From Bryobacteraceae bacterium (GTDB lineage Bacteria > Acidobacteriota > Terriglobia > Bryobacterales > Bryobacteraceae), in contig CANGYQ010000014.1 of the NCBI GenBank assembly GCA_947458745.1, positions 61,084 to 125,083 on the forward strand: a DNA stretch of 64,000 nucleotides. Direction: 5' to 3'. Below the pieces are notes generated by a model that saw only the letters and a program-made list of their open reading frames with translations, was not told the DNA's origin and ran no database searches. This document shows, one piece after another, positions 9,892-64,000 of the stretch (within the stretch, counting starts at the first letter, position 1; every line of letters begins with the position of its first letter). The position numbers and the translations under genes were made by a program.

Positions 9892-10347
9892 CTACGGCTT
9901 GGGTTTCGCTTCCGGCTTCTCGGCGTCGATTTTGATCTGTTTCAGCATCTCGGCATCGGGCGGCATCTCTTCTTTGCCAGCGGGGAACTTGCCCATGCTG
10001 AAAATGTAAGCCAGGATGTCGGCGTTGGTCTGGCGGGACAGCGTTTTCGGTTTGCTGATGGGCATGGTGGTGCGGATGCGCTCGAATAGATCGCCCACTG
10101 TCAGACCGTTCCAGTTGGCCAGAAATTCGCCACCGGTCAGCGGCGGCGACATCTCGCCCCCGCTCATCAGGTCGCCATGGCAACTAGCGCACTCTTTCTT
10201 ATAAAGCGGCTGGCCCCGCTGGGCCTGCTCGTCGGTGTAAATACCGTCCCAGGTGGATTGCGTGGGCTCCGGGGCCTGGGCCGCGACAACTACGAGGGAG
10301 AAAGCGAGCGTGCCCGCCACCAGGGCGTAGGTCAGGTTCCGGTTCAT
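9892..10347 (-). CDS. c-type cytochrome (mono-heme), periplasmic
   Basis: Signal peptide plus a single heme motif CASCH ('YKKECASCHGDL'). Starts 16 nt downstream of the PQQ dehydrogenase stop. Confidence 0.8.
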   Translation of the reverse strand: MNRNLTYALVAGTLAFSLVVVAAQAPEPTQSTWDGIYTDEQAQRGQPLYKKECASCHGDLMSGGEMSPPLTGGEFLANWNGLTVGDLFERIRTTMPISKPKTLSRQTNADILAYIFSMGKFPAGKEEMPPDAEMLKQIKIDAEKPEAKPKP

Positions 10348-10363
10348 GACTGTTGCTGCCAGT

Positions 10364-43700: not shown

Positions 43701-44151
43701 CCCGGCCGTTGAGCGGAAGTTCAATGATGCGGCGATTCTCGATCACCTGGCCGAGCGTGGCGTTGGTGGTGTTGACCAGTGGCGCCGTGGCCTCGACGTT
43801 GACTCGATCGGTGGCCGCGCCCACTTCGAGGCTGATGTCGAGCGACACGCGATCGCTGACCTGCAGAAGCACGCGGTTGCGCGCGGCCGCCTTGAATCCG
43901 GTCTTGCTGACCTCTAAGCGATAGGTGCCAGGGCGTAGCAGCGGGAACGAGTAAAGGCCTGCGTCCGCGGTGGTGAAGCGGCGCGTGATGTTGGTGGCGA
44001 GGTCAGTGATACTCACCTCCGCGCCCGGAATCGCGGCGCCGGTGGGATCGGTGACCAGGCCTTGCAGCGTAGCCGTCGACGATTGGCCGAAGGTCGCGTT
44101 GGCGAGCGCCAACAGGAGCAGGGTCGCAAGAACGCTAATGGATTTCGACAT
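40722..44151 (-). pseudogene. CarboxypepD_reg/TonB-dependent-receptor-like OMP split by a +1 frameshift near 43465
   Basis: Track ORFs 43381..44241 (N-terminus: signal peptide, 'LQGLVTDPTGAAIPGAEVSITDLATN...') and 40722..43436 ('[V]ISVITKSGTNQPHG...') are two halves of one gene. The conserved 'SAEFGRFNGGVISVITKSG' motif is broken at gagTTTCggg. Confidence 0.75.
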
Positions 44152-44234
44152 GGGGATGCACCTCTCTGAAGTAATACTGATGTAACAGTTTATCGGGAAA
44201 AACTCTGGCGTCATGGACCGGCAGTCGGCTCTGC

Positions 44235-46868: not shown

Positions 46869-46879
46869 GGCTTGTAAAA

Positions 46880-46895
46880 AACTGCGATAGCAGTT
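46880..46895. promoter_or_regulatory. operator candidate AACTG-CGATAG-CAGTT
   Basis: 16-bp inverted repeat lying 12 nt upstream of the GH78-like start (46868) and downstream of the minus-strand -10 element. Same arms as the site at 46995-47010. Confidence 0.45.
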
Positions 46896-46903
46896 GTGAG
46901 GTT

Positions 46904-46932
46904 AGAATATCGGAGTCGCCTGGCATTGTCCA
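46904..46932 (-). promoter_or_regulatory. sigma70-like promoter TGGACA-N17-TATTCT (minus strand)
   Basis: The minus strand reads TGGACA (46932-46927), a 17-nt spacer, then TATTCT (46909-46904). Confidence 0.35.
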
Positions 46933-46957
46933 GGGGAATTCTGCCAGGAGGCTGCGC

Positions 46958-46986
46958 TTGACAACGGCCCAAGAGTCCATTAGGCT
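46958..46986 (+). promoter_or_regulatory. sigma70-like promoter TTGACA-N17-TAGGCT
   Basis: TTGACA at 46958-46963, TAGGCT at 46981-46986. Lies upstream of the OMP gene that starts at 47026. Confidence 0.4.
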
Positions 46987-46994
46987 CAATCAGA

Positions 46995-47010
46995 AACTGA
47001 CGTACCAGTT
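46995..47010. promoter_or_regulatory. operator candidate AACTG-ACGTAC-CAGTT
   Basis: 16-bp inverted repeat starting 9 nt downstream of the plus-strand -10 element and ending 15 nt before ATG 47026. Confidence 0.45.
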
Positions 47011-47025
47011 GGGAAGGTGTCGCGC

Positions 47026-50000: not shown

Positions 50001-50446
50001 GTTGGTCGGCGTCGGGGCAGTTCTCCGCGAATACCGGCTTTCCGCTGGTGCTCTCTTCGATCGGAAACTCCGGCGTGGGCGGCGGCATCCTGCGGCCGAA
50101 CTCGACTGGTGTCTCCGCCAAGTTGAACGGCGATCCGCAGACGCGGCTGCTCCGTTACTTCGATACCAGCCAGTTCACCGTGCCACCGGCCTTCACTTTC
50201 GGCAATACGAGCCGCACACTGCCGGACGTCCGCGGCCCGGGGCGCGTGGCCTACAATGCGTCGCTGCAGAAAGCGTTCCCGATTCGCGACACGATCAAGG
50301 CGCAGTTCCGTGCCGAAGCATTCAATCTGACCAACACGCCCTTCTTTGGAAGGCCGGCGCAGCAACTTGGCGGTCCGGGCTTTGGCGTGATCAACTCGGC
50401 TAGCGGCGAACGCCAAGTGCAGCTATCGCTAAAAGTGAACTTCTAA
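47026..50446 (+). CDS. CarboxypepD_reg/TonB-dependent-receptor-like OMP (apparent frameshift between signal peptide and mature domain at about 47075)
   Basis: ATG 47026 (GGGAAGG SD) encodes MKTKVLLCLLPLPLLAQ in frame 1. The body ('NITGSLLGNITDPSGAPVAKASVEITN...', 'GGVINVVTKGGSNDLHG', ...SLKVNF) is in frame 2, which has no ATG or GTG before TTG 47093. Confidence 0.75.
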
Positions 50447-50454
50447 GGGGCACA

Positions 50455-51684
50455 TTGACACGCCGCGACCTTCTCACCTTTCCCTGGCTCTCGCCGTTGG
50501 CGCTTCGTGGGGCTCAAACCGCCGCGCCGAAGCGGCTGGTCTGCATCGGGCTCGATCTATCAATGCGCCCTGAGCAGTTCTTTCCCGTGGGCGAGTGGCC
50601 GGACTACCAGTTGAGCCCCTTGTTGCAGCCGCTTGCTCGCTGGCGGCAGCAACTCACCGTCTTCTCACATCTGGATCATCCTGGCGTCAGCGGCGGACAC
50701 TACGGCGTCCACGCGTTTCTAAGTGGCGTCCGGCGTGAACAGGGGAGCGGTTTCGCCGATGGCTGTGTCTCGATTGATCAGCTAGCCGACGAGCAAGTCG
50801 GCAAACAAACCCGATTCTCTTCGCTTTGCCTGGGCGTGGGCGGCGGGGACAATATTTCCTGGACACGGTCCGGCATCGCCGTGCCGAAGCTCGAGGATCC
50901 ATCAGCAACCTTCGATCTCTTGTTCCGCCCACCGACTCAGGGAGTGACGGAGGCCCGGCGATCCCGGCTTGCGGAAAACCAATCCATTCTGGCCCTGCTC
51001 CAACCGCAGGCGAAGCGGCTGGGTCCGCAACTCGATCGTTGGGACCGCGAGAAGCTCGACGAGTTCATCACCGCTCTGCGCGACTTTGAGCGCACGACGG
51101 AAGCAAGCGCTGCCTGGCTCGACAAGCCGCTGCCCAAGACTGCCGGCGACCGCCCGGTGTGGTCGCCATCCGGATGCATGGACAAGGTGCGGGCCACCTT
51201 CGAAGCGATGGCGCTGGCGCTCCAGGCGGACGCCACGCGAATCATCAGTTTCAACATCGGCACCGGTTTGCCGGTGACGAAGATTCCCGGCGTGTCCCGC
51301 AGCTATCATGACCTCTCCCACAGCGGGCAAGATCCGGACAAACTGCGCCAACTCCATTTGATCGAGTTGGCGCTGGTCGGCGAATTGGATCGCTTCCTGG
51401 GGACGTTGGCCGAACGCAAGGACATCGGCGGTGGCACGCTGCTCGATCACACCACGGTGATTTTCGGCAGCGGCATGGGTAACGCTAGTTCCCACTCGAA
51501 CCTCGACCTACCTGTGCTGGTGGCCGGCGGCGGCTTCCGGCATGGGCGGCATCTCTTCTTCCCCAAGCAGGGGCGCAAGCAAACACCGCTGTGCAACCTC
51601 TATGTCAGCCTGCTGCAGAAGATGGGCATCGAGCGTGACCGCTTCGGGTCGAGCAACGGGAATCTAAATGAGTTTCTGGCGTAA
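50455..51684 (+). CDS. DUF1552 domain-containing protein (Tat-type signal)
   Basis: TTG start after AAGGGG; 'MTRRDLLTFPWLS' signal. 'SYHDLSHSGQDPDKL' and 'LLDHTTVIFGSGMGNASSHSNLDLPVLVAGGGFRHGRH...PLCNLYVSLLQKMGI...FGSSNG' form the DUF1552 pattern. Confidence 0.75.
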   Translation: MTRRDLLTFPWLSPLALRGAQTAAPKRLVCIGLDLSMRPEQFFPVGEWPDYQLSPLLQPLARWRQQLTVFSHLDHPGVSGGHYGVHAFLSGVRREQGSGFADGCVSIDQLADEQVGKQTRFSSLCLGVGGGDNISWTRSGIAVPKLEDPSATFDLLFRPPTQGVTEARRSRLAENQSILALLQPQAKRLGPQLDRWDREKLDEFITALRDFERTTEASAAWLDKPLPKTAGDRPVWSPSGCMDKVRATFEAMALALQADATRIISFNIGTGLPVTKIPGVSRSYHDLSHSGQDPDKLRQLHLIELALVGELDRFLGTLAERKDIGGGTLLDHTTVIFGSGMGNASSHSNLDLPVLVAGGGFRHGRHLFFPKQGRKQTPLCNLYVSLLQKMGIERDRFGSSNGNLNEFLA

Positions 51685-54229
51685 GCTCCTCCCGCTGGCC
51701 GTCGCAGTCGTCGCGCCGATGTCCCCGGCCGCCGCGGCGCAACCAACGCCGCTGAAGGCGGATGCCTTTCTCGCTCGCTACTGCGTGGCCTGTCATGGCG
51801 GTGCGATGCAGAAGGCCGGCCGCCGCTTTGACGACCTCCCTTTGCGCGCCGGCGCCGACCTGCGCATCGCCGAACGTTGGGAGCAGATTCTGCATCAAAT
51901 CCAACTCGGGCAGATGCCTCCCGCCAAGATGCCGCAACCCTCCGCGCAGGAGCGTCAGGCGTTAACGGCCTGGATCGAGAATCTATTGACGGACGCGCGC
52001 CAGGCTGCGATCCCGGGCAACGGCCGTGTGGTCCACCGCAGGTTGAATCGTCTGGAGTATCTGAACACTATTCGCGATCTGTTCGGCTTTCGCGAAGGCG
52101 ACTTCGACCCGACTACGGCCTTTCCCGCCGACGAGGAGGTGGATGGCCTCCGCAACATCGGTTCGGCGCTACGCGTCTCTCGTCATCACGTGGAGCAGTA
52201 CATGAGCGCCGCCGACCAAGTGCTGGCTTACGCCTACGACGTGGCCGGCGTGAACGGCATTCCGAAGCCTGGCAGTTGGGCCGACACGCCGGAAACCCTG
52301 CGGTCCGGCCTGATGGCGTATGGCACTGGCGTTGTCAAGGCCGAGAAAGCGAATGGTCCGGCTTACATCCACCTGAGCCACGGCATTCGCAATCTTGAGC
52401 AGAACTACGACGCCAAGCTTTTCTTGGACGCCCTGCCGCAAGGCGTGCCGCACTCCGGTTGGTACGATATCGAGATCGAAGCCACTGCCGCGAACCGCCA
52501 TCATCCATACGGCAAAGAACTCATGATGCCGTTGACCATGCGCTACTACCCGGACTTGAAGTCGTTCTACGACGAGTCCCAGCCCATGCGCTTGGGTGTC
52601 GGACGGCAGAAGGCCACCCGCCAGAGCGAATGGAAGCGGGTAGCGCCCAACCTGGTCCACGCCGTGGACCTTCCCGACGAGAGATATGAGACCGTGCGTG
52701 CACGTGTCTGGCTCGACCAGGGCGCCGCGCCGTATCTCGCCTTCGTCAACGGGCCGCCGAAGGGCACGAAGCCGCAGTTCGTCTCCACCAAGCTCGATCG
52801 CTTCGATCCGACGGTCCCCAAGATCGACCGCAAGGTCTGGGAGAATCTCACGCTCCGGGCCGAACGCGACGAGCACTACTATCACTTGTACAAAGGCCCT
52901 GAGATTCGCATTCGCCGCTGGCAAGTGACGGGCCCCATGGCCGGCACAACGAAGCACGCTGCCCAGTCGCTCTTGTTCTCGTCCGTCGCTCCGGACGAGA
53001 ACAAGGTGAGCGATGCGAAGCTGTCCGCCGCGCTTGCGCAACTCGCCTCCACGCTGTTTCGCCGCCGCACCTCCGCCCAGGACGTGGCGCCGTACGTCGT
53101 GGCGGTGCGGCAGCGCTTAGACGGCAAGACCCGTTACGCCGAAGCGGCACGGCCCGTCCTCAAGGCTTTGCTGTGCGCTCCCGAGTTTTTGTTCCATACC
53201 GAGCGGGCAACGGCAGCAGGAACGTTGTCGGGAGAAGAGTTCGTCAACCGCCTCTCGTACTTTCTCACTGGCGGACCGCCGGACTCCACCCTGCGCGGTC
53301 TCGCCGTGCGCGGTCCGCTCGGCGGCGCCGCGCTGCGCGCGCAAACCGATCGCTTGCTTGATTCGCCAAACGCCGACCGCTTCTTCAGCATGTTCGCCGC
53401 CCAGTGGTTGGGCCTGAACCAACTGGGGACGATGCCACCCGGGCAGGAGGAATTCCCCGGCTACTACATCGACCGGCTGGAGCCCGCTATGAGGGAAGAG
53501 ACCTGGCGCTTCGTGGCCGAGTTGATGCGGTCCCGTCGCCCAGTAAACGATTTGGTGAACGCCGACTTCGCGTATGTGAATGAAGCGTTGAACCGGCGTG
53601 TGTACGGGTGGACCGGCGCAAAGGGCGATGACGTTGAGCGCGTCACACTCCCGGGCCACGTTCCGCGTCTCGGGCTGCTTCGGCAGGCCAGCGTACTCAC
53701 GGTGACCGCGAATGGCGTCGAAACGTCGCCCGTGAAGCGTGGCGTCTGGCTGCTGGACAAGATCTTTGGCACTCCGCCCAGTCCGCCGCCCCCTGATGTG
53801 CCGCCGCTCGAACCCGACATTCGCGGCGCCGCCACCGTGCGGCAACTGCTCGCCAAGCACCGCGCGAACGCAACCTGCGCCGAGTGTCATCAGAAGATCG
53901 ACCCGCTTGGTTTTGCTCTGGAGGGCTATGACCCCATGGGCCGGCCTCGCGAGAATTATCCAAGCGGGGCCAAGATCGACACCACGGGCGAGTATCGCGG
54001 GCACGGTGTCGCCAGTGCGGTGGAGGTGCGGGATTACCTGCTGGCCCATCCGGAATTGCTGGCGAACAACCTCGCCACTCGCTTGACCACCTACGCGCTC
54101 GGCCGGTCGCTCAGTTTGGATGACCGTGCCGCCGTCCGGCAACTAGTGGCCGTTTGGCGAAGCAAGGGCTACGCGCTTCGCGAGTTGGTTCATCTCATCA
54201 CTTCCGGCGAACCTTTCCGCCGGCCCTGA
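51668..54229 (+). CDS. DUF1587/DUF1592/DUF1595/DUF1588/DUF1585-type protein (cytochrome-c-like CxxCH motifs)
   Basis: 'FLARYCVACHGG' is the N-terminal PSCyt-like motif. 'CAECHQKIDPLGFALEGYDPMGRPR' and the C-terminal 'LATRLTTYALGRSL' belong to the DUF1588/DUF1585 region. Overlaps the DUF1552 gene by 17 nt. Confidence 0.75.
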   Translation: MSFWRKLLPLAVAVVAPMSPAAAAQPTPLKADAFLARYCVACHGGAMQKAGRRFDDLPLRAGADLRIAERWEQILHQIQLGQMPPAKMPQPSAQERQALTAWIENLLTDARQAAIPGNGRVVHRRLNRLEYLNTIRDLFGFREGDFDPTTAFPADEEVDGLRNIGSALRVSRHHVEQYMSAADQVLAYAYDVAGVNGIPKPGSWADTPETLRSGLMAYGTGVVKAEKANGPAYIHLSHGIRNLEQNYDAKLFLDALPQGVPHSGWYDIEIEATAANRHHPYGKELMMPLTMRYYPDLKSFYDESQPMRLGVGRQKATRQSEWKRVAPNLVHAVDLPDERYETVRARVWLDQGAAPYLAFVNGPPKGTKPQFVSTKLDRFDPTVPKIDRKVWENLTLRAERDEHYYHLYKGPEIRIRRWQVTGPMAGTTKHAAQSLLFSSVAPDENKVSDAKLSAALAQLASTLFRRRTSAQDVAPYVVAVRQRLDGKTRYAEAARPVLKALLCAPEFLFHTERATAAGTLSGEEFVNRLSYFLTGGPPDSTLRGLAVRGPLGGAALRAQTDRLLDSPNADRFFSMFAAQWLGLNQLGTMPPGQEEFPGYYIDRLEPAMREETWRFVAELMRSRRPVNDLVNADFAYVNEALNRRVYGWTGAKGDDVERVTLPGHVPRLGLLRQASVLTVTANGVETSPVKRGVWLLDKIFGTPPSPPPPDVPPLEPDIRGAATVRQLLAKHRANATCAECHQKIDPLGFALEGYDPMGRPRENYPSGAKIDTTGEYRGHGVASAVEVRDYLLAHPELLANNLATRLTTYALGRSLSLDDRAAVRQLVAVWRSKGYALRELVHLITSGEPFRRP

Positions 54230-54242
54230 GGACTTTTTTCCC

Positions 54243-56009
54243 ATGCGATTCTTTACAACCCTTCTCCTCGTCTCCACCGCCTTCACTCAAGTGCATGACC
54301 CGCGCAATATCGTAACGGGCACCGTGATCCCCGATGAGTTCTACGCCGACCAGCCCTATATCGTCAAGACCAACGACGGCGCCTGGCTGTGTGTCATCAC
54401 GACCGGCCCGGGCCAGGAAGGCGCCGGCGGCCAACACGTGGTCAGCCTGCGCAGCACCGACCAGGGCAAGACGTGGGAGAAGGCCGTCGACATTGAGCCC
54501 AACGACGGCCCCGAAGCTTCTTACGCCGTGATGCTGAAGGCCACCTCCGGCCGCGTCTACGTCTTCTACAACCACAACACCGACAACATCCGCCGCGTCA
54601 TCGGCGACAAACCCGCCTACAAAGACGGCTGGGTGACGCGCGTCGACTCGCTCGGCCACTTCGTCTTCAAGTACTCCGACGACCACGGCCGCACTTGGTC
54701 GAAGGAACGCTACGAGATTCCGCAGCGTGACTTCGAGATCGACCGCAAGAATCCCTACCAGGGCAAAATCAAGTTTTTCTGGACCGTCGGCAAGGCCTTC
54801 GCCCACAAGGGGGCTGGCTATGTGCCGCTCCACAAGGTGGGCGGCTTCGGCGATGGATTCTTCACGTCGAGTGAAGGCGTGCTGCTGCGTAGCGCGAACA
54901 TCATGACCGAGCGGGACGCAAAGAAGATCACGTGGGAGACGCTGCCCGACGGCGACATCGGCATCCGTACGCCGAAAGGCGGTGGCACCATCGCCGAGGA
55001 GCATTCGTTCAGCGTGATGAGCGATGGCTCGATCTTCTGCGTCTTCCGCACCATCGACGGCCATGCCGCCCATACCTACAGCCGCGACGGCGGCCGCACC
55101 TGGGAGCCCTCGCAATACATGCGCTTCGCCGACGGACGCCTAATGAAGCATCCGCGTGCGGCGAACTTCGCCTGGCGCGCCGAGAACGGCAAATACCTCT
55201 ACTGGTTCCACAATCACGGCGGACGCTTCATCCGCGAGCATCCGCGCCAGCGCACCAACGCTTATGAGGAGCGCAATCCCGTCTGGCTTTCGGGCGGCGT
55301 GGAAGCGGATGGCCCCATGGGCAAAATCATCCGCTGGTCGCAACCGGAGATCGCGCTTTACGACGACGACCCCATCATCCGCATGAGCTATCCGGATCTC
55401 GTCGAAGACGGCGGCAAGTACTATCTCACCGAGACACAAAAGGACGTCGCCCGCGTGCATGAGATCGATCCGGGGCTGCTAGTCGGCCTCTGGGGTGCTG
55501 CTGAACGCCCCGTGCCGGGCCAGGCCGCCACAAACGTCGTCTTCTTCCAGCGCTCCAAGCGCGCCGACCATGGCAAGGAAGATCTGCGAGCGAGTTTCTC
55601 GCTGGATCTTTGGGTTAACCTCTCCAGCCTTGAGGCCGGTCAGACGCTGCTCAGCAGCGCCGGCATGGCGCTGCGTACCATTGCTGGTGGCGCAGTGGAA
55701 CTCACGCTGAACGATGGCCGCTCGGAAAGCCGTTGGGCGTCGGACCCGGGTTCGCTTGCCGCCGGCAAACCTCAGCACATTGTAGTGATCGTGGATGGCG
55801 GGCCGAAGATTATCAGCTTCGTCACCAACGGCCAATTCAACGATGGCGGCGAGCACCGGCAATACGGCTGGGGCCGCTTCAGCCCGAACCTCAAGAACGT
55901 GATGGGTCTGGGCGAGCTAGCGAAGTCGCCGGCGGTGCTGAAGCTCAAGGTCTTCAATCGCTACCTCCGCACCGCGGAGGCCATTGCCAGCTATCGCGCA
56001 GGCCAATAA
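54243..56009 (+). CDS. BNR/Asp-box repeat glycosidase (sialidase-like) with C-terminal LamG-like domain
   Basis: Three Asp-boxes: 'STDQGKTW', 'SDDHGRTW', 'SRDGGRTW'. The C-terminal 'LDLWVNLSS...HIVVIVDGGPKIISFVTNGQFNDGG' is concanavalin/LamG-like. No FRIP motif seen. Confidence 0.7.
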   Translation: MRFFTTLLLVSTAFTQVHDPRNIVTGTVIPDEFYADQPYIVKTNDGAWLCVITTGPGQEGAGGQHVVSLRSTDQGKTWEKAVDIEPNDGPEASYAVMLKATSGRVYVFYNHNTDNIRRVIGDKPAYKDGWVTRVDSLGHFVFKYSDDHGRTWSKERYEIPQRDFEIDRKNPYQGKIKFFWTVGKAFAHKGAGYVPLHKVGGFGDGFFTSSEGVLLRSANIMTERDAKKITWETLPDGDIGIRTPKGGGTIAEEHSFSVMSDGSIFCVFRTIDGHAAHTYSRDGGRTWEPSQYMRFADGRLMKHPRAANFAWRAENGKYLYWFHNHGGRFIREHPRQRTNAYEERNPVWLSGGVEADGPMGKIIRWSQPEIALYDDDPIIRMSYPDLVEDGGKYYLTETQKDVARVHEIDPGLLVGLWGAAERPVPGQAATNVVFFQRSKRADHGKEDLRASFSLDLWVNLSSLEAGQTLLSSAGMALRTIAGGAVELTLNDGRSESRWASDPGSLAAGKPQHIVVIVDGGPKIISFVTNGQFNDGGEHRQYGWGRFSPNLKNVMGLGELAKSPAVLKLKVFNRYLRTAEAIASYRAGQ

Positions 56010-56026
56010 GGACGCGCCGTCAGTTA

Positions 56027-57739
56027 TTGGCGGTCCCGGCCGTGGCGGCCGCCCAAACACGTCCGCCTAATATTGTTTTGATCCTCACCGACGACCAGGG
56101 CTGGTGGGACGTAGGCCGCAATGGCAACACGGCGATCGAAACACCGGCGATGGACCGCCTGGCCGCCGAGGGCGTCAGCTTCCAGCGCTTCTACGCCTCG
56201 CCGGTGTGCGCGCCCACACGGGCCAGCATCATGACGGGCCGCTACTATCTGCGCACGGGAATCTACAACACACGCTTCGGCGGCGACACCCTGGATGCGA
56301 ACGAGATCACCATTGCTCAACTGCTGCAGACGCGAGGTTACCGCACGGGGCTATTCGGCAAGTGGCATCTGGGGCACTATCGTCGCTTCCATCCGGATCG
56401 GCGTGCCTTCCACCGGTGGGTCGGCTTCACGCAAGGGCACGTGGAGCGCTACTTCCATCCCGATCAGTTGCTCGACAACGGCAAGCCCGTCAAGGCGCGC
56501 GGCCACCTCACCGATCTCTTCACCGATTGCGCCATCGATTTCGTCAAGGACAATCGCGAGCGCCCGTTCTTCCTCTACCTGGCCTATAACGTGCCCCATT
56601 CGCCCAACTACGTCGAGAATCGTTGGACCGAGCGCTATCTCAAAAAAGGAGTGCCGCTCGAAGATGCGCAAATCTACGGCATGCTCTCGCACTGCGACGA
56701 GAACATTGGCCGCTTGCTGCGTACGCTGGACGACCAGGGCCTGCGCGATAACACACTGGTTGTCTTCCTTTCCGACAATGGTGGCGTCAGCAAGTACTTC
56801 AAGGCCGGATTGCGGGGCCAGAAGGCCAGCGCCTACGAAGGCGGTATCCGCGTGCCGTGCTTCCTCCGCTGGCCGGGACGCATCGAGCCGGGCACCGAGG
56901 ACAAGTCAGCGCGTGCGGCCATGGATCTGTTTCCCACCATCGCCGAAGTGGCTGGTGTGCCCATGCCGAAGGATCGCCCCATCGATGGCAAGAGCCTGCT
57001 GGCGCCGCCGCCGGATCGAGCGCTGTTTCACATCTGGGACCGCTTTCAGCCAAGCCTGAGGAGCAATTGGTCGATCACGCGCGGCCGCCATAAACTGACT
57101 CGCACGGAGCTCTTCGATCTGGAGGCCGATCCATCTGAAAAGGTGAACCTCAAGGCACAACAGCCAGAAGTTGCCGCCCGTCTGCAGCGCGAGTTTGAAA
57201 CATGGCTCGCCGAGATGACGCGCGGCCGCCGCTTTGAGCCCGCCGCCATCGAGGTCGGCCGCGCAGATGACAATCCCGTGGAGTTGCATCCGAGTTGGGC
57301 CATCGTGCCGGGTACCAACGTCACCTGGGCCTCGCCCGGTGGAACGCCTTCCAAGCCCGAGGCGTTGCCGCGAAGCGGCGCGTCCACCGTCAACTACAGT
57401 TTCGCGGGCTACGACTGGGACACCATTGACAGTTGGCGCAAACCGGGCGATGGCGCGGAGTGGAAACTCAACGTAGTGGCGGCCGGCCGCTATCGGGTGC
57501 GATTCGCGTACGGCTGTCGTGCTTCGGCGGCGGGCGGCCGATGGCGCCTTGAGGTCGGGCGTTCCGTGCTCGAAGGAGTTGTCTTGGCAACGCCCGGCCG
57601 CAACGTGTTCCAGGAGTTCGACGTCGGCGAACTTCGTCTGGCTGCGGGGCTAGTCATCGCCCGCATCTCGGTGACCCAAGAGCGTAAGGAGGAACTAATG
57701 GCTCTGAACAGGATCTGGCTGGAGCGCATCGGCCGGTGA
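56027..57739 (+). CDS. arylsulfatase-family sulfatase with C-terminal beta-sandwich domain (start codon ambiguous)
   Basis: 'PNIVLILTDDQGWWD' and 'SPVCAPTRASIMTGRY' (CxPxR formylglycine motif), plus 'GKWHLG'. In-frame start candidates are TTG 56027 and ATA 56006. Confidence 0.85.
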   Translation: MAVPAVAAAQTRPPNIVLILTDDQGWWDVGRNGNTAIETPAMDRLAAEGVSFQRFYASPVCAPTRASIMTGRYYLRTGIYNTRFGGDTLDANEITIAQLLQTRGYRTGLFGKWHLGHYRRFHPDRRAFHRWVGFTQGHVERYFHPDQLLDNGKPVKARGHLTDLFTDCAIDFVKDNRERPFFLYLAYNVPHSPNYVENRWTERYLKKGVPLEDAQIYGMLSHCDENIGRLLRTLDDQGLRDNTLVVFLSDNGGVSKYFKAGLRGQKASAYEGGIRVPCFLRWPGRIEPGTEDKSARAAMDLFPTIAEVAGVPMPKDRPIDGKSLLAPPPDRALFHIWDRFQPSLRSNWSITRGRHKLTRTELFDLEADPSEKVNLKAQQPEVAARLQREFETWLAEMTRGRRFEPAAIEVGRADDNPVELHPSWAIVPGTNVTWASPGGTPSKPEALPRSGASTVNYSFAGYDWDTIDSWRKPGDGAEWKLNVVAAGRYRVRFAYGCRASAAGGRWRLEVGRSVLEGVVLATPGRNVFQEFDVGELRLAAGLVIARISVTQERKEELMALNRIWLERIGR

Positions 57740-58929
57740 TTACTCGGCGCAACCTGCTGGCCGCGCTTGCGCCCGCGCCGCCCCAGCTCAACTACATCCT
57801 GGTGCTCGCCGATGACATGGGCTACGGCGACGTCGGCCCGCACACGCCACATCTGAACCGGTTGGCGGCCGATGGCGTACGCCTCAAGGATCACTACTTG
57901 TGCTCGCCCGTCTGCTCGCCGGCCCGCGCCGGGCTGATGACGGGTTTGGTGCCCGATCGCGTCGGGATCACGGGTGTGCTGCGCGAACAGCACGACGCCC
58001 ATCATGGCCTGGCGCTCGGCGCTAAAACAATGGCCGACCACTTTCGCGCTCGCGGCCTCAAAACCGCCCTGCTCGGCAAGTGGCACCTCGGCATGAGTGC
58101 CCCGTATCATCCCAATCGCCGTGGCTTCGACTACTTTTGGGGCTACCTCAACGGCATGCACGACTACCGTACGAACCTCTCCGCTGGTGGAGGCGGCAAG
58201 GGCACAAGGCAGACGTACGAGAACGAAACTCCCGTCGAGCTCAAAGGCTACTTGCCCGAGTTGCTGACCCGTAAAGCGGTGGAGTTCGTCGAGCAGCATC
58301 GCAATCAACCCTACTTTCTCTACCTGGCCCATCCGCTGCCGCACGCCCCGTTGCAGGCTCCAACCGGCTTCGCGTCGCAGGAACCGCGCGACGTCTATGG
58401 CGCTATGCTTTCGGCGCTGGATGAGACGATCGGCGCCGTGCGCGGGGCGCTCGAACGGACGGGGCAATGGGATCGCACGGTGATGGTCTTCCTGTCCGAC
58501 AACGGGTGGGTCAAGAAGGTCTCGCCGGATCAGGCCCCGCTCGGCAGCAACGGACCGTTCCGCGGAGGCAAGTACGAACTATTCGAAGGCGGCATCCGTA
58601 GCCCTTGCATCGTTCGTTGGCCGGGCCTATCGCGGCCCGGCACCATCGCTAAGACGCCCACCTGGTTCGCCGATTGGCTGCCGACCTTCACCGGCGTCAA
58701 GACGCGCGCCGGCCGCGATATCCGCGACGTTATCGCCGGTCTCAAAGGGGATGAAAAACGGCTGCTGGCCTGGCGCTTCGAAGACGCGCTTGTCAAGACG
58801 CCGCTAACCTTCGCTGCCCGCCAGCGCAAATGGAAGCGGCTCAATGACGATGTCTACGATCTTGCCGCGGACCCGGGTGAGCAATATCCCATCCGGTCGA
58901 ACAGGCTGGAGAAAGAGCTCAATGAGTGA
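57736..58929 (+). CDS. arylsulfatase-family sulfatase
   Basis: 'NYILVLADDMGYGDVG', 'SPVCSPARAGLMTG' (CxPxR), 'GKWHLG' and 'VMVFLSDNG'. The GTG start overlaps the upstream stop (GTGA). Confidence 0.85.
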   Translation: MITRRNLLAALAPAPPQLNYILVLADDMGYGDVGPHTPHLNRLAADGVRLKDHYLCSPVCSPARAGLMTGLVPDRVGITGVLREQHDAHHGLALGAKTMADHFRARGLKTALLGKWHLGMSAPYHPNRRGFDYFWGYLNGMHDYRTNLSAGGGGKGTRQTYENETPVELKGYLPELLTRKAVEFVEQHRNQPYFLYLAHPLPHAPLQAPTGFASQEPRDVYGAMLSALDETIGAVRGALERTGQWDRTVMVFLSDNGWVKKVSPDQAPLGSNGPFRGGKYELFEGGIRSPCIVRWPGLSRPGTIAKTPTWFADWLPTFTGVKTRAGRDIRDVIAGLKGDEKRLLAWRFEDALVKTPLTFAARQRKWKRLNDDVYDLAADPGEQYPIRSNRLEKELNE

Positions 58930-59320
58930 AAGGCGCAACTCGCCACGCCGGTGTAATCTCGGAGGGCGAATGGCGCGTATCGTACAGATTTTGAGGCGTT
59001 TGCGATGAGCTCGGGTCTTTCTCGCTTTTCGGGTCCCTGCGGCGCGGGACACCCTCGCGGAGGGGGGAGGCGCGTTTCGGATTTGCGTGAGGGTGTTTGA
59101 ATTGTGATGAATCGCGGCCAAGGCGCACAGCCCCCTCCACTTTATCGTTGCACGCGAGAGGCTAAGAAATTGCGGCTACGCGCGTAAGTGATAGGAGTAT
59201 CGGACGAAAGAAGCCCAGAGTGTGAATCGTAAACGACGGCCTAGCGCTTTCCTAGCGAGCCAGAATCTGATATAACAATTTCTCGATTGGTAGGCGACTC
59301 GAAATGGGATTGCACTTCTG

Positions 59321-59833
59321 ATGAACTTTTCCGCCTTCGTTCAGTGGCTCGATGCGACACCGGGCAGTGTTGCCTTGCGCGAGTCGATGCTCGGCTATCC
59401 GATGATCGAGACCATGCATGTGCTGACGCTCTGCTTGTTCCTGGGTATGATTGCGCTGGTCGATCTCCGGCTGCTCGGTCTCGGTTTTCAGTCTATTCCG
59501 GTATCGGAGGTTGCCGGGCGGTTGCTCCCCATCGGGCTCGCCGGCTTCGTTCTGATGGCTGTCAGCGGCGCCCTGCTGTTCTATTCCGGGCCGATCCGCG
59601 CCTACGGCAATATCTTCTTCCGTATCAAAATGGCGCTGATTATGCTAACCGGCATCAACGCGCTGGTCTTCCACTACACCATTTACAAGCGCGTGGCCAG
59701 TTGGGATCGCGATCCCATTCCGCCTCTGCGCGCACGGCTTGCCGGACTGTGTTCGCTGGTGCTTTGGAGTGCGGTTGTGGTGTGCGGCCGCATGCAGGCC
59801 TACAATTGGTTCGAAAAAGCGCCGGGAGCGTAG
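59321..59833 (+). CDS. hypothetical 4-TM membrane protein (DUF6644-like; assignment from memory), paralog 1
   Basis: Four hydrophobic helices. Shares 'RES..(5)..P(M/V)IE..H' and 'VDLRLLG(L/F)G' with the next gene. Confidence 0.6.
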   Translation: MNFSAFVQWLDATPGSVALRESMLGYPMIETMHVLTLCLFLGMIALVDLRLLGLGFQSIPVSEVAGRLLPIGLAGFVLMAVSGALLFYSGPIRAYGNIFFRIKMALIMLTGINALVFHYTIYKRVASWDRDPIPPLRARLAGLCSLVLWSAVVVCGRMQAYNWFEKAPGA

Positions 59834-59842
59834 AGCATCACC

Positions 59843-60307
59843 ATGGACCTTCTTCCCTTTTTCCAGCAGCTCGAAGCCACCACCGTCGGCCGCGTGGTCC
59901 GTGAATCGCTTTGGATGTTCCCCGTGATCGAATGCGTGCATCTGCTTGCGCTGGCGCTGCTGGGGGGCGCGGTGCTGCTGGTCGACTTGCGGTTGTTGGG
60001 CTTTGGCTTGGTGAATCAACCGGTGGATCTACTTGCCCGCAAAGCCGACCCGTGGCTGCTGGCCGCTTGGATGGTGATCATCGCTACCGGCATCCCCATG
60101 TTCCTTTCCGAAGCGACCAAATGCTACTACAGCCCTCCGTTCTTTTACAAGATCGGTCTGTTGGTGATTGCTTCCGTCTACACCTTCACCTATCGCCGGC
60201 GGGTGACCAGGGAATTGGCGTATGGGCGAGCCCCGCTGACCGCGTGCGCTTCGCTGGCGCTATGGTTCGGGGTTGGCTTCGCCGGCCGTTGGATCGCTTT
60301 TTACTAA
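59843..60307 (+). CDS. hypothetical 4-TM membrane protein (DUF6644-like), paralog 2
   Basis: Tandem paralog of 59321..59833, separated by a 9-nt gap. The track ORF 59911..61146 is an out-of-frame shadow. Confidence 0.6.
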   Translation: MDLLPFFQQLEATTVGRVVRESLWMFPVIECVHLLALALLGGAVLLVDLRLLGFGLVNQPVDLLARKADPWLLAAWMVIIATGIPMFLSEATKCYYSPPFFYKIGLLVIASVYTFTYRRRVTRELAYGRAPLTACASLALWFGVGFAGRWIAFY

Positions 60308-60318
60308 GGCAGGATGAA

Positions 60319-61146
60319 ATGACGCGCCTATTGTTGATTGCAGCATTGATGTTCGCCGCACCTGGCGCTCCGGCTCAGGTGCGGCTTCCCCGTTTGCCCA
60401 ACGGCAAGCCGGACTTCAACGGCATCTGGCAGGCGGCCAGTTCCGCCCACTTCGATATCGAACGCCACATGGCCCGGCACTCCCTGATGTTGCGCGACGG
60501 TCCCTACGGTCCGTTGCCTGCGGTGCCCACACTGGCACTCGGCGCCGTGGGCGCGGTTCCAGGCGGCATGGGTATTGTGGAGGGCGGCAAGATTCCCTAC
60601 AAGGCGGAGGCGCTGAAACTACGCGACGAGAACCGCCAGCACTGGATCGAGCGAGACCCGGAGGTGAAGTGCTATCTCCCCGGGATTCCGCGCGCCAACT
60701 ACATGCCGTTCCCGTTCGAAATTGTGCAGAACGCGAGCCAGTTCTTTTTCTCCTATGAATACGCAGGCGCCCATCGCGACGTGCTCTTCAAAGATCCGGG
60801 GCCGGCCGAAACCGACACTTGGATGGGACAGGCGGTGGGCAAATGGGAGGGCGATACGCTGGTGATCGAAAATTCGGGTTTCAACGACCAAACTTGGTTT
60901 GATCGCGCCGGCAATCATCACTCCAGCCAACTGAAGGTGGTGGAGCGGCTGAAACTGATGACGCCTTACCACATCCAGTACGAAGCAACCATCACCGACC
61001 CCGAAGTGTTTACCGGCCCCTGGAAAATCGCGCTGCCGCTCTATCGCCGGATGGAGAAGGACCCGCGCATCATGGATTTCCGTTGTGTCGAGTTCGTCGA
61101 GGAGCTAATCTACGGCGAGCACCGGCGCAATCCGCTGAAACGTTAG
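60319..61146 (+). CDS. hypothetical periplasmic protein, paralog A
   Basis: Signal peptide MTRLLLIAALMFAAPGAPAQ. The motifs 'GKPDFNGIW', 'WEGDTLVIENSGFNDQTWFD' and 'LKVVERL' are shared with the next gene. Real start at ATG 60319. Confidence 0.65.
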   Translation: MTRLLLIAALMFAAPGAPAQVRLPRLPNGKPDFNGIWQAASSAHFDIERHMARHSLMLRDGPYGPLPAVPTLALGAVGAVPGGMGIVEGGKIPYKAEALKLRDENRQHWIERDPEVKCYLPGIPRANYMPFPFEIVQNASQFFFSYEYAGAHRDVLFKDPGPAETDTWMGQAVGKWEGDTLVIENSGFNDQTWFDRAGNHHSSQLKVVERLKLMTPYHIQYEATITDPEVFTGPWKIALPLYRRMEKDPRIMDFRCVEFVEELIYGEHRRNPLKR

Positions 61147-61162
61147 TTGAGGAGGATGGAAG

Positions 61163-62173
61163 ATGCGTAGCACCGTCATCAGTTTATTGTTTGCGCTGGC
61201 GGCGAACGCCGCCGATGGCCCGCGCACCCCCGAGGGTAAACCCGACTTCTCGGGCGTCTACGACATTGCGTCGCTCACGCCTTTGGCGCGCCCCACGCAA
61301 TTCGGCACGCGGCTGGAGTTGACCGATGCCGAGGCGGAGGCGCTGGCGAAGAAGGTGATGGCCGCCGTGGCCGCCGACAGTCGCGCCAGTGACCCCAACC
61401 GCAAAGCGCCTACCGCGGGTGGGGATGTTGGCAACTACAACCAGCTCTGGTACGACCGCGGGACCATGGCCGTGAAAATCGGCGGCAAGTGGCGTACCTC
61501 CATCATCACGGACCCGCCCGACGGCCGCCTGCCCGAGCTCACGCCAAAGGGCAAGGAGATTGCGGCCCGAAACGCACTACAGAACCGGACCACGGGCGCC
61601 GCGTTCTGGATTACGGAGAACTTGAAGCCGGGTCCGTTTGACGATCCAGAACTTCGTCCGCTCACCGAACGCTGCCTGGGCACCTTCGGTACGTCGGCCG
61701 GCCCGCCCATGTTGCCGGCCGGCTACAACAACCTCAAACAGATCGTGCAAACCAGAAACCGGGTTCTCATCCTGAACGAAATGATTCACGACGTACGCAT
61801 CGTCCGGATAAACGCCGAGCACGACCCGCCCGACATGCGCCGATGGTTCGGCGATTCGGTGGGCCATTGGGAAGGCGACACGCTGGTGGTGGATACCACC
61901 AACTTCAACGACACACCCGGGCTTTTCTCGGCTTCTCGCAACCTGCACGTAGTGGAGCGCTTCACCCGTCTAGACGCAAATACGCTCAGCTACAAGTTCA
62001 CCGTGGAAGATCCGACGATATGGGCCAAGCCCTGGAGTGGCGAGGTGGCCTGGCCAAAGACCTCGCAGCGGCTCTTTGAATACGCTTGCCACGAAGGCAA
62101 CTACTCGTTCATGGGCATTCTGAAAGGTGCGCGAATGCTGGAGGCGGAAGCGCTCCAGAAGACGTCGAAGTAA
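61163..62173 (+). CDS. hypothetical periplasmic protein, paralog B
   Basis: GAGGAGG SD and signal peptide MRSTVISLLFALAANAA. Motifs 'GKPDFSGVY', 'WEGDTLVVDTTNFNDTPG' and 'LHVVERF'. Confidence 0.65.
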   Translation: MRSTVISLLFALAANAADGPRTPEGKPDFSGVYDIASLTPLARPTQFGTRLELTDAEAEALAKKVMAAVAADSRASDPNRKAPTAGGDVGNYNQLWYDRGTMAVKIGGKWRTSIITDPPDGRLPELTPKGKEIAARNALQNRTTGAAFWITENLKPGPFDDPELRPLTERCLGTFGTSAGPPMLPAGYNNLKQIVQTRNRVLILNEMIHDVRIVRINAEHDPPDMRRWFGDSVGHWEGDTLVVDTTNFNDTPGLFSASRNLHVVERFTRLDANTLSYKFTVEDPTIWAKPWSGEVAWPKTSQRLFEYACHEGNYSFMGILKGARMLEAEALQKTSK

Positions 62174-62191
62174 GAAGGAGGAGAAGGATCG

Positions 62192-62626
62192 ATGAAGAGA
62201 AAGACCGTTTTGATTGCACTCGCGGCCAGCGCGCTCCTGTTTGTCCGGGTAGGCCAGGTGGAGGCTCACCACGCCTTCGGCGCGGAGTTCGATCCGAATC
62301 GCCCCATACTGCTCAAGGGACCCGTGAAGCGCGTCGAGTGGATCAACCCGCATACCTGGATCCATGTCGAGCACACCGACGAGAAGGGGAATAAGGAAAT
62401 CTGGATGGTGGAAGGCGGTACGCCCAACAGTCTGCTGCGGCGTGGCCTGAAGCGCGACTCCCTCAAACTCGGCCAGATCGTGATTGTCGATGGATATCAG
62501 GCGAAGGACCGCTCCCATCGCGCCAACGGCCGCGATGTTACGCTCCCCGACGGCCAGAAGTTTTTCATGGGCTCTTCCGGCACCGGCGCGCCCTATGATC
62601 AACCCGGCAAGGACCAGCGCAAATGA
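62192..62626 (+). CDS. small periplasmic protein (DUF6152-like; assignment from memory)
   Basis: AGGAGGAG SD. Signal peptide ends ...VGQVEA, so the predicted mature N-terminus is HHAFGAEFD. Beta-rich body of about 120 aa. Confidence 0.6.
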   Translation: MKRKTVLIALAASALLFVRVGQVEAHHAFGAEFDPNRPILLKGPVKRVEWINPHTWIHVEHTDEKGNKEIWMVEGGTPNSLLRRGLKRDSLKLGQIVIVDGYQAKDRSHRANGRDVTLPDGQKFFMGSSGTGAPYDQPGKDQRK

Positions 62627-64000
62627 GCAAGGCCGCATTGTGCCTGGCCTTGCTCAGCCCGCTTCTCGCCCAACATACTGCCGTCCCGGCGCGCACCGGA
62701 GGATTCAGCCAGGCGCAGGCGCAGCGCGGCGAGAAGCAGTACGCGGCGCTGTGCAAGAACTGCCATGGATCCGATCTCGCCAACGGCGTGGCGCTACCGC
62801 TGGCGGGCGCGTCGTTCCTGGAGAATCGGGGGTCCAGGCAGCCCTACTGGCTTTGGCGCAACGTTCAGAGGATGCCTCCCGGCGGCGGTCTTCTTCCCGC
62901 CGGTCAGGCGCTCGACGTGACTGCTTACATCCTGCAGTATAACGGCCACGCGCCGGGTGACGAGGAGTTAAAGGAGGGCACGCCCTGGATGACGACCGCC
63001 ACGATAGTACCCCCCGCCGGTTCCAAGGGCCGGAACTTGACTCCTCCCGCTTTCATCCCCGGTGAGCCCAGCGCCACTCCGCGTCAGGGCGCCGGGCCAT
63101 CGCAAGCGGAGCTGAACAACGCTTACTCGTCGAAGAGCGATTGGCTGTATCACACGCACGACTATTCCGGAGCGAGGTTCGTGCAGTCGGCGCAAATCAC
63201 GCCGGCCAACGCAGCCCAACTGCGTGTGGCCTGCCTCTTTCAGTTCGGCGAACAGAGCAATTTTCAAACGGGGCCCATCGTCTATCAGGGGCGCATGTAT
63301 CTCACCGGACTCCGCACGACGGCGGCCATCGACGCACGCAACTGCGAATTGATCTGGAAGCACGAATGGGTGCCCCGCGCCAAGGAAGCCTGGCAATTCA
63401 ATCGGGGCGTGGCCATCAAGGATGGCTACCTGGTTCGCGGAACAGTGGATGGCTATTTGGTGGCGCTCAACATGGAATCTGGCAGCTTGATCTGGGCACG
63501 GCGTGTCGCCGACTCGAGCATCGGAGAAGCCTTCACGATGCCACCGGTGATCTTCGAAGACAAAATCATCGCCGGACCCGCCGTCAGCGAGGCTGGGATT
63601 TCCGGCTGGGTGGGAGCCTTCCGCCTCACCGACGGTACGCCGCTGTGGCGATTCAACACCGTACCAAAGGCGGGCGAGCCGGGGTCCGAAACGTGGAAGA
63701 ATCCGAACAACCTGGTGATCGGCGGAGGGGGCACCTGGACGCCCTACGCGCTCGATCAAGAGAAGGGCGAAGTGTTCGTTCCGGTGGCAAATCCGATTCC
63801 AGACTTTCAACCTCATCTCCGCGGGGGAGACAATCTCTATACGAACTCGGTGGTCGCGCTCAGTGCCCGCACGGGCAAACTGGTCTGGCATCGCCAGACC
63901 GTGCACCGGGATTCTCACGACTGGGATCTGACTCAGGCGGGCCCGCTTTATCAGGCCAACGTCGGCGGCAGAGATGTGAAGGTGGTGGTTTCCGCCGGCA
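62623..64000 (+). CDS. cytochrome c - PQQ-dependent dehydrogenase fusion (3' end outside window; not in the ORF track)
   Basis: Hand translation from ATG 62623, which overlaps the upstream stop (ATGA). Signal peptide MSKAALCLALLSPLLAQ, heme motif 'LCKNCHGSD', a Pro-rich linker, then propeller blades ('IVYQGRMYLTG', 'GYLVALNMESGSLIW', 'SVVALSARTGKLVW'). The frame stays open to 64000. Confidence 0.75.
   Translation, partial: MSKAALCLALLSPLLAQHTAVPARTGGFSQAQAQRGEKQYAALCKNCHGSDLANGVALPLAGASFLENRGSRQPYWLWRNVQRMPPGGGLLPAGQALDVTAYILQYNGHAPGDEELKEGTPWMTTATIVPPAGSKGRNLTPPAFIPGEPSATPRQGAGPSQAELNNAYSSKSDWLYHTHDYSGARFVQSAQITPANAAQLRVACLFQFGEQSNFQTGPIVYQGRMYLTGLRTTAAIDARNCELIWKHEWVPRAKEAWQFNRGVAIKDGYLVRGTVDGYLVALNMESGSLIWARRVADSSIGEAFTMPPVIFEDKIIAGPAVSEAGISGWVGAFRLTDGTPLWRFNTVPKAGEPGSETWKNPNNLVIGGGGTWTPYALDQEKGEVFVPVANPIPDFQPHLRGGDNLYTNSVVALSARTGKLVWHRQTVHRDSHDWDLTQAGPLYQANVGGRDVKVVVSAG

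Follow-up and report, generated by a model that had tools for sequence, protein, structure and literature searches.

At the 3' end of a 64,000-nucleotide (nt) stretch of DNA from a Bryobacteraceae bacterium (contig CANGYQ010000014.1; hereafter the window), six genes (g1–g6) lie on the forward strand between positions 59321 and 64000. Here we describe the envelope unit encoded by the first five of them and its relation to the quinoprotein encoded by the sixth. The open reading frame (ORF) listing, translation and direct reading of the sequence confirmed the tight packing reported in the initial annotation: the gaps from g1 to g5 measure 9, 11, 16 and 18 nt in order, and g5 and g6 overlap by 4 nt (ATGA). 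The first two genes encode proteins with four transmembrane (TM) helices, of the 'long' (g1, 59321–59833, 170 amino acids (aa)) and 'short' (g2, 59843–60307, 154 aa) DUF6644 type. They are followed by two secreted proteins of an unnamed family that we call X: g3 (60319–61146, 275 aa, starting MTRLLL, with a signal peptide and then GKPDFNG) and its paralogue g4 (61163–62173, 336 aa). The fifth gene encodes a small secreted DUF6152 protein (g5, 62192–62626, precursor of 144 aa), and the sixth a fusion of a cytochrome c domain with a pyrroloquinoline quinone (PQQ) propeller (g6, 62623–64000). The end of the window cuts g6 and leaves 459 of its 663 codons inside, so its full length of 663 aa was read from identical contigs of other metagenomes (L001–L003; such labels denote the loci fetched for the synteny analysis). 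In L001, the next called gene past g6 is short, lies at the contig end and is on the opposite strand; therefore the cluster ends with g6. In the following, M and M' stand for the two DUF6644 proteins, Xa for g3, Xb for g4 and O for the DUF6152 protein g5.

Profile searches placed g1 and g2 in the Pfam family DUF6644 and g5 in DUF6152, as the initial annotation had proposed, and g6 matched Pfam PQQ and Cytochrome_CBB3. The same assignment did not hold for g3 and g4, which have no Pfam or NCBIfam family and are a separate unnamed family that is neither DUF6644- nor DUF6152-like. The view that the first five genes have no assigned function stood: for the core proteins we found no characterised homologue or solved structure in the libraries searched, and a literature search on DUF6152 or DUF6644 returned no paper.

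Conservation of the five-gene unit

The synteny set comprised 160 loci, 80 of them genome loci anchored on relatives of Xb and 80 metagenome loci anchored on g2-like DUF6644 genes, and the ORFs in these loci were labelled by iterative profile search. Among the Xb-anchored genome loci, 43 carried a solo X gene and 31 carried Xa, Xb and DUF6152 together. Xa and DUF6152 co-occurred strongly in these 80 loci (Fisher p = 2e-15), DUF6152 being present in 31 of the 34 loci with an Xa gene. Tandem DUF6644 pairs were found only beside this core, on either strand, in 15 of the 35 genome loci with DUF6152, and in 20 of these 35 loci there was no DUF6644 gene within 10 kb. Reciprocally, 20 of the metagenome loci anchored on DUF6644 had flanks of 1.5 kb or more on each side, and 19 of these carried X or DUF6152 genes. 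The five core proteins are all 45–70% identical between Acidobacteriota, Gammaproteobacteria and Gemmatimonadota. These data show that g1–g5 are one conserved, co-inherited envelope unit of five genes, not six, and that the duplication of both its membrane and its periplasmic components, noted in the initial annotation, is co-conserved across phyla. The neighbourhood check proposed there was thus borne out for the first five genes but not for the PQQ gene, which is not core.

High gene density across the window and the frequency of short gaps in such genomes would be in keeping with another explanation, namely that the six genes are functionally unrelated and owe their proximity to chance in a compact genome. 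However, gene order and content are kept across phyla with strong statistics, and we regard chance packing as extremely improbable; it is refuted for g1–g5 by synteny and possible, at reduced likelihood, for g6. The high identity across phyla suggests horizontal transfer of the module, strong sequence constraint, or both. Compared with the window, the core proteins of L011, L013, L018 and L032 are 50–69% identical between Acidobacteriota and Gammaproteobacteria, which is high for such a distance.

A minimal form of the unit occurs in marine Gammaproteobacteria, where a short X-like gene (218–232 aa) is followed by a divergent 123-aa DUF6152 gene. The short X-like proteins aligned to the X profile with hhalign probabilities of 94% and 49%, and the X-like gene preceded the 123-aa DUF6152 gene in all marine gammaproteobacterial contexts inspected. 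No DUF6644, cytochrome or PQQ gene is attached to these marine pairs. Therefore the oldest unit is X plus DUF6152, and the module of the window is an elaborated form, M-M'-Xa-Xb-O. In L095 (4737–5291) and L096 (6770–7324), the minimal pair is preceded and overlapped by the gene of a 184-aa protein with one N-terminal hydrophobic segment and no Pfam family; this protein is unrelated to DUF6644.

The make-up of the module varies among loci (L051, 7669–12069; L030, 8952–15538; L140; L166), with two DUF6644 pairs around one Xa-O-Xb, extra Xb copies, or two Xa-O sets per locus, and in an acidobacterial clade (L050–L055) the order is Xa-O-Xb rather than Xa-Xb-O. Several other neighbour families were not consistently tied to the module: TonB-like outer-membrane proteins, kinases, SDR, coenzyme A (CoA) transferase, a thiamine diphosphate (ThDP) enzyme, the metallo-beta-lactamase fold, amidase and peptidases. 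A recurrent neighbour family of the first census ('cluster 1') was discarded as antisense ORFs of X genes, which in this high-GC DNA (L006–L085) give the false appearance of a conserved family of neighbours if length is the sole criterion for calling genes.

The proteins of the unit

The small secreted protein g5 scored 99.4 bits against DUF6152 (PF19649; residues 21–108; gathering cut-off 27 bits), a family of 12,477 clusters at 50% identity. Its signal peptide (62192–62266) ends in VEA, and the predicted cleavage yields a mature protein starting HHAFGAEFD, with the N-terminal His-His encoded at 62267–62272, in accord with the initial annotation. HH directly follows the predicted signal-peptidase site in 35 of 35 DUF6152 sequences from several phyla. 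A His as the first mature residue, the trait of CopC and of histidine-brace proteins, is found in both subfamilies. H26, H27, N52-P53-H54, W71 and E74 are invariant even between DUF6152 subfamilies that share ~28% identity. The AlphaFold2 model of g5 is a five-stranded oligonucleotide/oligosaccharide-binding (OB)-like barrel (predicted local distance difference test score (pLDDT) 66.5), for which Foldseek returned generic OB folds only; a sequence search of solved structures gave nothing significant. In the monomer model, pLDDT is low over the segments of g5 that are most conserved, namely the N-terminus, TPNSLLR and the tail SSGTGAPYD, which is what one would expect of regions that form an interface or bind a ligand. 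Long DUF6152 'fusions' proved mostly to be read-through (frameshift) artefacts, apart from some tandem repeats and one Metal_resist fusion. In the latter (P0430), DUF6152 including the SSGTGAPYD tail is joined to a Metal_resist (Spy/CpxP/ZraP-like) domain. Another protein, P0440, has two DUF6152 repeats, the second starting with an internal 'EHHSYSETYD'.

The membrane proteins g1 and g2 scored 30.7 and 73.8 bits against DUF6644 (PF20349), with membership defined as a score above the gathering cut-off of 27 bits across the ~155-residue 4-TM domain, and all 20 relatives of the pair matched this family (best E 1.7e-33). The two are paralogues (32% identity, E 2e-17) that share the motifs RES, P(M/V)IE..H and VDLRLLG(L/F)G listed in the initial annotation. 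They end in GRMQAYNWF (g1) and GRWIAFY (g2). In g1, the TM segments span residues 34–52, 61–79, 98–116 and 138–156, and the TM3–TM4 loop is rich in Lys and Arg. The family alignment (g2 numbering) has five invariant residues, H33, K103, S137, W141 and G148, and three nearly invariant ones, D48, R50 and R149. The codons of His33 lie at 59417–59419 in g1 and 59939–59941 in g2. Of the intramembrane Glu/His that had been described as conserved, the His is indeed invariant, while the Glu is Q, G or M in some members. Each subunit therefore presents an invariant His where TM1 begins, an invariant Lys where TM3 begins and, where TM4 ends, an Arg that is nearly invariant, and the topology implied by the Lys/Arg-rich loop would place His33, Lys103 and Arg149 at the periplasmic face.

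DUF6644 members weakly matched DUF2214 (8 of 20, best 2.9e-5) and CopD (PF05425; 2 of 20, best E 3e-4), and g2 itself scored 15.3 bits against CopD, under the cut-off of 32.1, so that a tie between DUF6644 and CopD through DUF2214 is possible at the superfamily level. In the YcnI/YcnJ and CopC/CopD systems, a copper protein with an N-terminal His works with a CopD-type membrane protein (PMC8424229, PMC12362106, PMC8689200). Like the module, CopC/CopD (YobA/YebZ) and YcnI/YcnJ combine a small secreted protein whose first residue is His with a membrane protein of few helices encoded nearby. These precedents raise the possibility that the module acquires copper or another metal: DUF6152 would capture Cu(II) by its N-terminal histidines and pass it on to the two DUF6644 proteins, which would move it into or through the inner membrane, with Xa and Xb as accessory periplasmic partners and the cytochromes and the quinoprotein as clients or chance neighbours. 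The invariant mature N-terminal His, the weak CopD and DUF2214 matches and the Metal_resist fusion all fit metal acquisition. Further points in its favour are that hhalign sets His33 on a YebZ His within a common H-x8-G motif (an alignment that is not significant), that in both L094 and L097 a multicopper oxidase is encoded at a distance of 2–3 kb from the minimal pair, and that a MerR-type regulator lies near it in L093.

Nevertheless, the differences are several. First, CopC and YcnI are beta-sandwiches, whereas DUF6152 has a predicted OB fold. Second, the obligatory partner of DUF6152 is the X family rather than a membrane protein, as the 20 of 35 loci that have no nearby DUF6644 gene indicate. 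Third, DUF6644 proteins have four TM helices, come as a paralogous pair and belong to a module with which cytochromes c are associated, and each subunit offers one invariant His and one Lys with no Met/His/Cys-rich path. Membership tests for CopD and CopC failed, and we rejected the assignment of the module to CopCD, the hhalign comparisons of DUF6644 with YebZ and of DUF6152 with YobA both being non-significant. No copper regulators or efflux genes recur near the module, and metal acquisition leaves the strong cytochrome c association (see below) unexplained. We consider it unlikely.

The secreted proteins g3 and g4 share 30% identity over their C-terminal 128 residues (E 8e-15) and an N-terminal GKPDF(N/S)G motif, and the paralogy and the further motifs of the initial annotation (WEGDTLV(I/V), FND and VVER) are all present. 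The relatives of g4 number more than 8000, all 'hypothetical' and none with a Pfam domain; Pfam at E ≤ 5 over 48 X-family members gave scattered noise only, and a sequence search of solved structures found nothing significant for g4 or the X profile. The closest g4 relative, 86% identical, is carried by L086 (6138–15584). In the AlphaFold2 model of Xb (pLDDT 74.4, above 90 across most of residues 190–300), the C-terminal half is a predicted beta-barrel of calycin/FABP-like type, to which Foldseek gave weak FABP/CRBP matches (best E 1.2e-3, target-normalised TM-score 0.45–0.55); at the sequence level, the X family had no match to the calycin superfamily. The pair C171 and C309 is conserved in the Xb family and probably forms a disulfide, and the invariant charged residues of the X proteins are D161, E163, E206, R212, E265, D283, R303 and E311.

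A predicted FABP/CRBP-like barrel would also suit a carrier whose cargo is a small hydrophobic or amphipathic molecule, for instance a quinone, an isoprenoid or a lipid, and in which the Xa and Xb barrels bind the ligand, DUF6152 acts as an adaptor and the DUF6644 pair is the membrane acceptor. An analogy is offered by lipocalin-like YceI, encoded beside the 4-TM cytochrome b561 YceJ. Solo X paralogues abound, being found in 43 of 80 loci, a pattern common among families of binding proteins, and the gammaproteobacterial neighbours often belong to lipid or CoA metabolism (acyl-CoA dehydrogenase, SDR, CoA transferase). Yet the Foldseek matches are weak (E ~1e-3, target-normalised TM-score ~0.5), the many charged invariant residues of X fit a polar or catalytic site better than a lipid pocket, and the invariant His-His N-terminus and the cytochrome association are not accounted for. 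We judge the carrier function improbable.

Cytochrome c and quinoprotein neighbours

Clustering of the neighbours of 85 module loci yielded a ~150-aa family with an invariant C-terminal CxxCH and an invariant Met38 in the first helix (alignment A7), and most aligned members have a lipoprotein-like Cys at the end of the signal sequence. Five of six members weakly matched Cytochrom_C_2 (PF01322; best 3.8e-5), the best score of 25.1 bits lying under the cut-off of 26.5, and the family matched many solved class II cytochromes c, weakly but consistently. With class II proteins (cytochrome c', c-556) it shares the C-terminal CxxCH and the Met of the N-terminal helix; it differs from them in scoring under the Pfam cut-off and in its mostly lipoprotein-like signal. 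Its gene is present in 42 of 115 module loci and in none of 45 solo-X loci (p = 1.2e-7), including 11 of the 15 genome loci with DUF6644 pairs. With few exceptions it is immediately adjacent to the module, and in some loci the two share an operon: the order is Xa-Xb-O-cyt in L018, cyt-M-M in L141 and L150, and cyt-Xb-Xb-Xa-O-M-M on a single strand in L110 and L142, and the cytochrome gene is divergent from the M pair in L007 (8058–8651), L009 (8059–8535) and L090 (5697–6197), on the minus strand in all three; counting these three, 39 further loci make up the remainder of the 42. In the whole window there is no member of this family, nor a remnant of one in the spacer upstream of g1, the place that it occupies in relatives, and the sole c-type haem adjoining the module there is the N-terminal domain of g6. 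A separate ~480-aa family (e.g. L083, 16341–17795), which has a CxxCH motif and weakly matches copper type II monooxygenases in their C-terminal domain, occurs within 10 kb of X genes in L027, L036, L037, L052, L057, L062 and L083.

The reported fusion of haem c to a PQQ propeller in g6 was verified. The haem motif CKNCH (residues 44–48, 62752–62766) lies in a cytochrome c domain (residues 31–103, ~62713–62931; Cytochrome_CBB3, 27.8 bits), and a PQQ-type 8-bladed propeller begins at residue 174 (from ~63142; Pfam PQQ, 175 bits for the part inside the window, cut-off 26.7). Full-length g6 scored 319.7 bits against TIGR03075 (methanol/ethanol PQQ dehydrogenases) and 301.2 bits against TIGR04528 (acido-empty-quinoprotein group A), under the respective cut-offs of 480 and 650. 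Its best solved relative is the quinoprotein ethanol dehydrogenase 6zcv (E 6.5e-51), and 1kv9 also matched (E 1.8e-47). With the quinohaemoprotein and quinoprotein alcohol dehydrogenases (ADHs; ADH IIB 1kv9, PedH/PedE-type 6zcv and XoxF), g6 shares the 8-bladed PQQ propeller and a haem c output domain. In contrast to the type II quinohaemoprotein ADHs, whose cytochrome c domain is C-terminal, g6 carries its haem c domain at the N-terminus. In the alignment to 6zcv, it has Ala-Trp in place of the vicinal Cys-Cys, one of the active-site features of the methanol/ethanol family. The same alignment indicates that g6 keeps the metal-binding Glu and Asn and an Asp-x-Asp (HDWD) at the catalytic position, a pattern that we take to be typical of lanthanide-type enzymes and treat as a lead only. 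The acceptor of quinoprotein ADHs is azurin or a cytochrome c550, whereas the acceptor proposed here for g6 would be the uncharacterised module.

PQQ-like genes with a fused or neighbouring cytochrome c adjoin the module in the window, L083, L086 and L090. In L083 (Gemmatimonadota), an orthologue 57% identical to the g6 propeller stands beside the module, and the cytochrome c is a separate gene. L090 has the six-gene order of the window, with a PQQ-like protein that is 23% identical to g6 and bears an N-terminal CATCH motif. This motif led us to drop a pattern by which a PQQ haem domain would occur only where the class II cytochrome is absent. In L086, which has no DUF6152 gene, Xa-Xb is followed by the genes of a 244-aa cytochrome c of dihaem-like type, a canonical PQQ alcohol dehydrogenase (528 aa, 555 bits against TIGR03075, 30% identical to g6) and a TonB-like protein; this last, an outer-membrane protein, has 1136 aa, and upstream on the other strand are two unannotated genes (166 and 105 aa). 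No PQQ gene lies near the module in L007, L009 or L088, the first two being the closest complete relatives, and of the 51 metagenome loci anchored on DUF6644, 1 had a PQQ-like gene. PQQ-like genes were mildly enriched close to the module, with 8 observed at a distance of up to 1 kb against 2.8 expected (P = 0.008). The PQQ gene is not part of the core; g6 is a lineage-specific partner, and cytochrome-linked quinoproteins are one among several recurrent partners of the module.

The window contains a second, canonical PQQ dehydrogenase on the minus strand (10364–12493, 709 aa; Pfam PQQ, 592 bits, full-length match), which is followed by a separate 151-aa cytochrome c; the pair spans 9892–12493 on that strand. 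No X, DUF6152 or DUF6644 gene lies near this pair, which shows that the genome holds several cytochrome-linked quinoproteins.

These distributions bear on the idea that g1–g5 act solely as accessories of the quinoprotein, supplying PQQ, Ca or a lanthanide, or serving as its private electron-transfer chain. The 4-nt overlap of g5 and g6, the PQQ-like gene at the same downstream position in L090 and L086, the orthologue in L083 and the metal-binding and catalytic residues to which g6 aligns, as in lanthanide-type enzymes, speak for it. However, 50 of the 51 loci anchored on DUF6644 have the module and no PQQ-like gene, as do L007, L009 and the minimal pairs of marine bacteria, the neighbouring PQQ proteins are mutually non-orthologous, and the other PQQ dehydrogenase of the window has its own cytochrome and no such module. 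The rarity and non-orthology of PQQ genes beside the module indicate that it does not appear to be there to serve the quinoprotein; a dedicated accessory system is already largely refuted by distribution, and we hold it to be very improbable. What stands of the redox link suggested in the initial annotation is its more general form, which is plausible because c-type cytochromes recur beside the module.

A possible periplasmic redox module

The interpretation that we favour, tentatively and as quite possible rather than probable, is that g1–g5 encode a metal-dependent redox module which works in the periplasm and transfers electrons to or from cytochromes c. Xa, Xb and the small OB-fold DUF6152 protein would assemble into a periplasmic complex. 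Its metal site, of the 'histidine brace' type represented by CopC and YcnI (PMC8424229, PMC12362106, PMC8689200) and most likely for copper, may consist of the mature N-terminal His-His, the invariant histidine of the NPH motif and Glu74, a proposal drawn from residue conservation and supported by the Metal_resist fusion of P0430. The presumed calycin-like barrels of Xa and Xb could hold a small ligand or substrate. The two DUF6644 proteins would form a 4+4-TM heterodimer, in which His33, Lys103 and Arg149 at the periplasmic leaflet might either serve as a docking site for the complex or coordinate a cofactor, be it haem b or a metal. The partner in electron exchange would be a c-type cytochrome, which most relatives would have in the form of the class II cytochrome c-like lipoprotein. 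In the window, the fused haem c domain of g6 would take the role of this missing cytochrome, and electrons from an alcohol, aldehyde or sugar would pass from PQQ to haem c and on to the module.

A number of observations weigh against this redox module. Near the marine minimal pairs there is neither a cytochrome gene nor one for DUF6644, and the original function may therefore not have been a redox one. The X proteins have no conserved His, Met or Cys metal ligands besides the one probable disulfide, and the internal HH of the tandem-repeat protein P0440 cannot be an N-terminus. DUF6152 aligned to E. coli YobA (CopC) with an hhalign probability of 6% and is not CopC-like, its predicted OB fold differs from the known histidine-brace folds, and DUF6644 aligned to E. 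coli YebZ with a probability of 0.9%. The AlphaFold2 models of g5 and g4 are moderately confident and leave the His-His segment unmodelled, and the metal, haem and protein–protein contacts are all inferred. Finally, PQQ-like genes are numerous and a second one lies in the window, so that the adjacency of g6 to the module is possibly in part due to chance.

A bolder form of the proposal, which we regard as distinctly unlikely, would make X plus DUF6152 an unrecognised class of periplasmic metalloenzyme, elaborated in the window to Xa, Xb and DUF6152 with a DUF6644 heterodimer in the membrane. An N-terminal-His copper centre on an OB fold would act on a substrate bound in calycin-like barrels, and dedicated cytochromes of the c type or, here, a cytochrome-fused PQQ dehydrogenase would reduce the enzyme. 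The remaining probability falls to functions outside those considered in this work.

Fungal lytic polysaccharide monooxygenases (LPMOs), histidine-brace copper enzymes, are fed by the cytochrome-domain dehydrogenases cellobiose dehydrogenase or PQQ-dependent pyranose dehydrogenase. The likeness lies in a secreted N-terminal-His protein beside a cytochrome-bearing PQQ-type dehydrogenase and in the logic of dehydrogenase to haem to metal. In contrast, there is no relation in sequence or fold, and the module is bacterial and periplasmic and includes X barrels and a membrane pair. If it exists, the metalloenzyme would be the bacterial counterpart, from unrelated folds, of the LPMO/dehydrogenase redox couple. 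The combination of a small helical membrane domain with a periplasmic c-type cytochrome also recalls the urate oxidase PuuD, a complete oxidase in which the DUF989 membrane domain, of which short 4-TM versions exist, is fused to cytochrome c (PMC4562309). This is an analogy only, as no DUF989 match was listed for g1, g2 or the 20 relatives in Pfam at E ≤ 5; neither did a sequence search of solved structures give anything significant for the DUF6644 profile. For the core proteins, no membership test was passed by any of these analogous systems. With function inferred, and on the basis of absence from the libraries searched, we rated the module as lying outside every described kind of system.

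The five core proteins come from very large families for which no function, structure or paper was found, and these families occur in abundant soil Acidobacteriota and marine Gammaproteobacteria. The His-His N-terminus and the cytochrome c association suggest a hypothesis open to test: aerobic heterotrophs that break down complex organic matter may have a new, metal-dependent redox activity in the periplasm. If this were true, a new fold would join the short list of N-terminal-histidine metal centres, the DUF6644 membrane proteins, related to CopD by weak matches, would gain a role, and an electron acceptor would be identified for many orphan cytochrome-linked PQQ-type dehydrogenases of Acidobacteria. 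Even with a wrong mechanism, a five-gene unit and a minimal two-gene unit are defined and ready for experiments.

The cluster is preceded by a spacer of 391 nt (58930–59320, forward strand) between the end of a sulfatase ORF (58929) and the start of g1, which presumably contains the promoter or leader. The spacer had no Rfam match and folds in an ordinary way (z −0.31); upstream of g1 we found neither a riboswitch nor a structured leader, and promoter-like and terminator-like sites in our scans, including those inside the cluster, did not exceed the expectation from shuffled sequences. The nearest relatives carry the labels Acidobacteria or Bryobacteraceae. Upstream of the cluster, the region 40722–58929 resembles a polysaccharide-utilisation neighbourhood: it encodes two CarboxypepD_reg/OMP_b-brl_4 TonB-like outer-membrane proteins, a rhamnosidase-like protein, a DUF1552 (HXXSHH) protein, a PSCyt/PSD 'planctomycete cytochrome' protein, a BNR/sialidase-like protein with a laminin-G domain, and two sulfatases.

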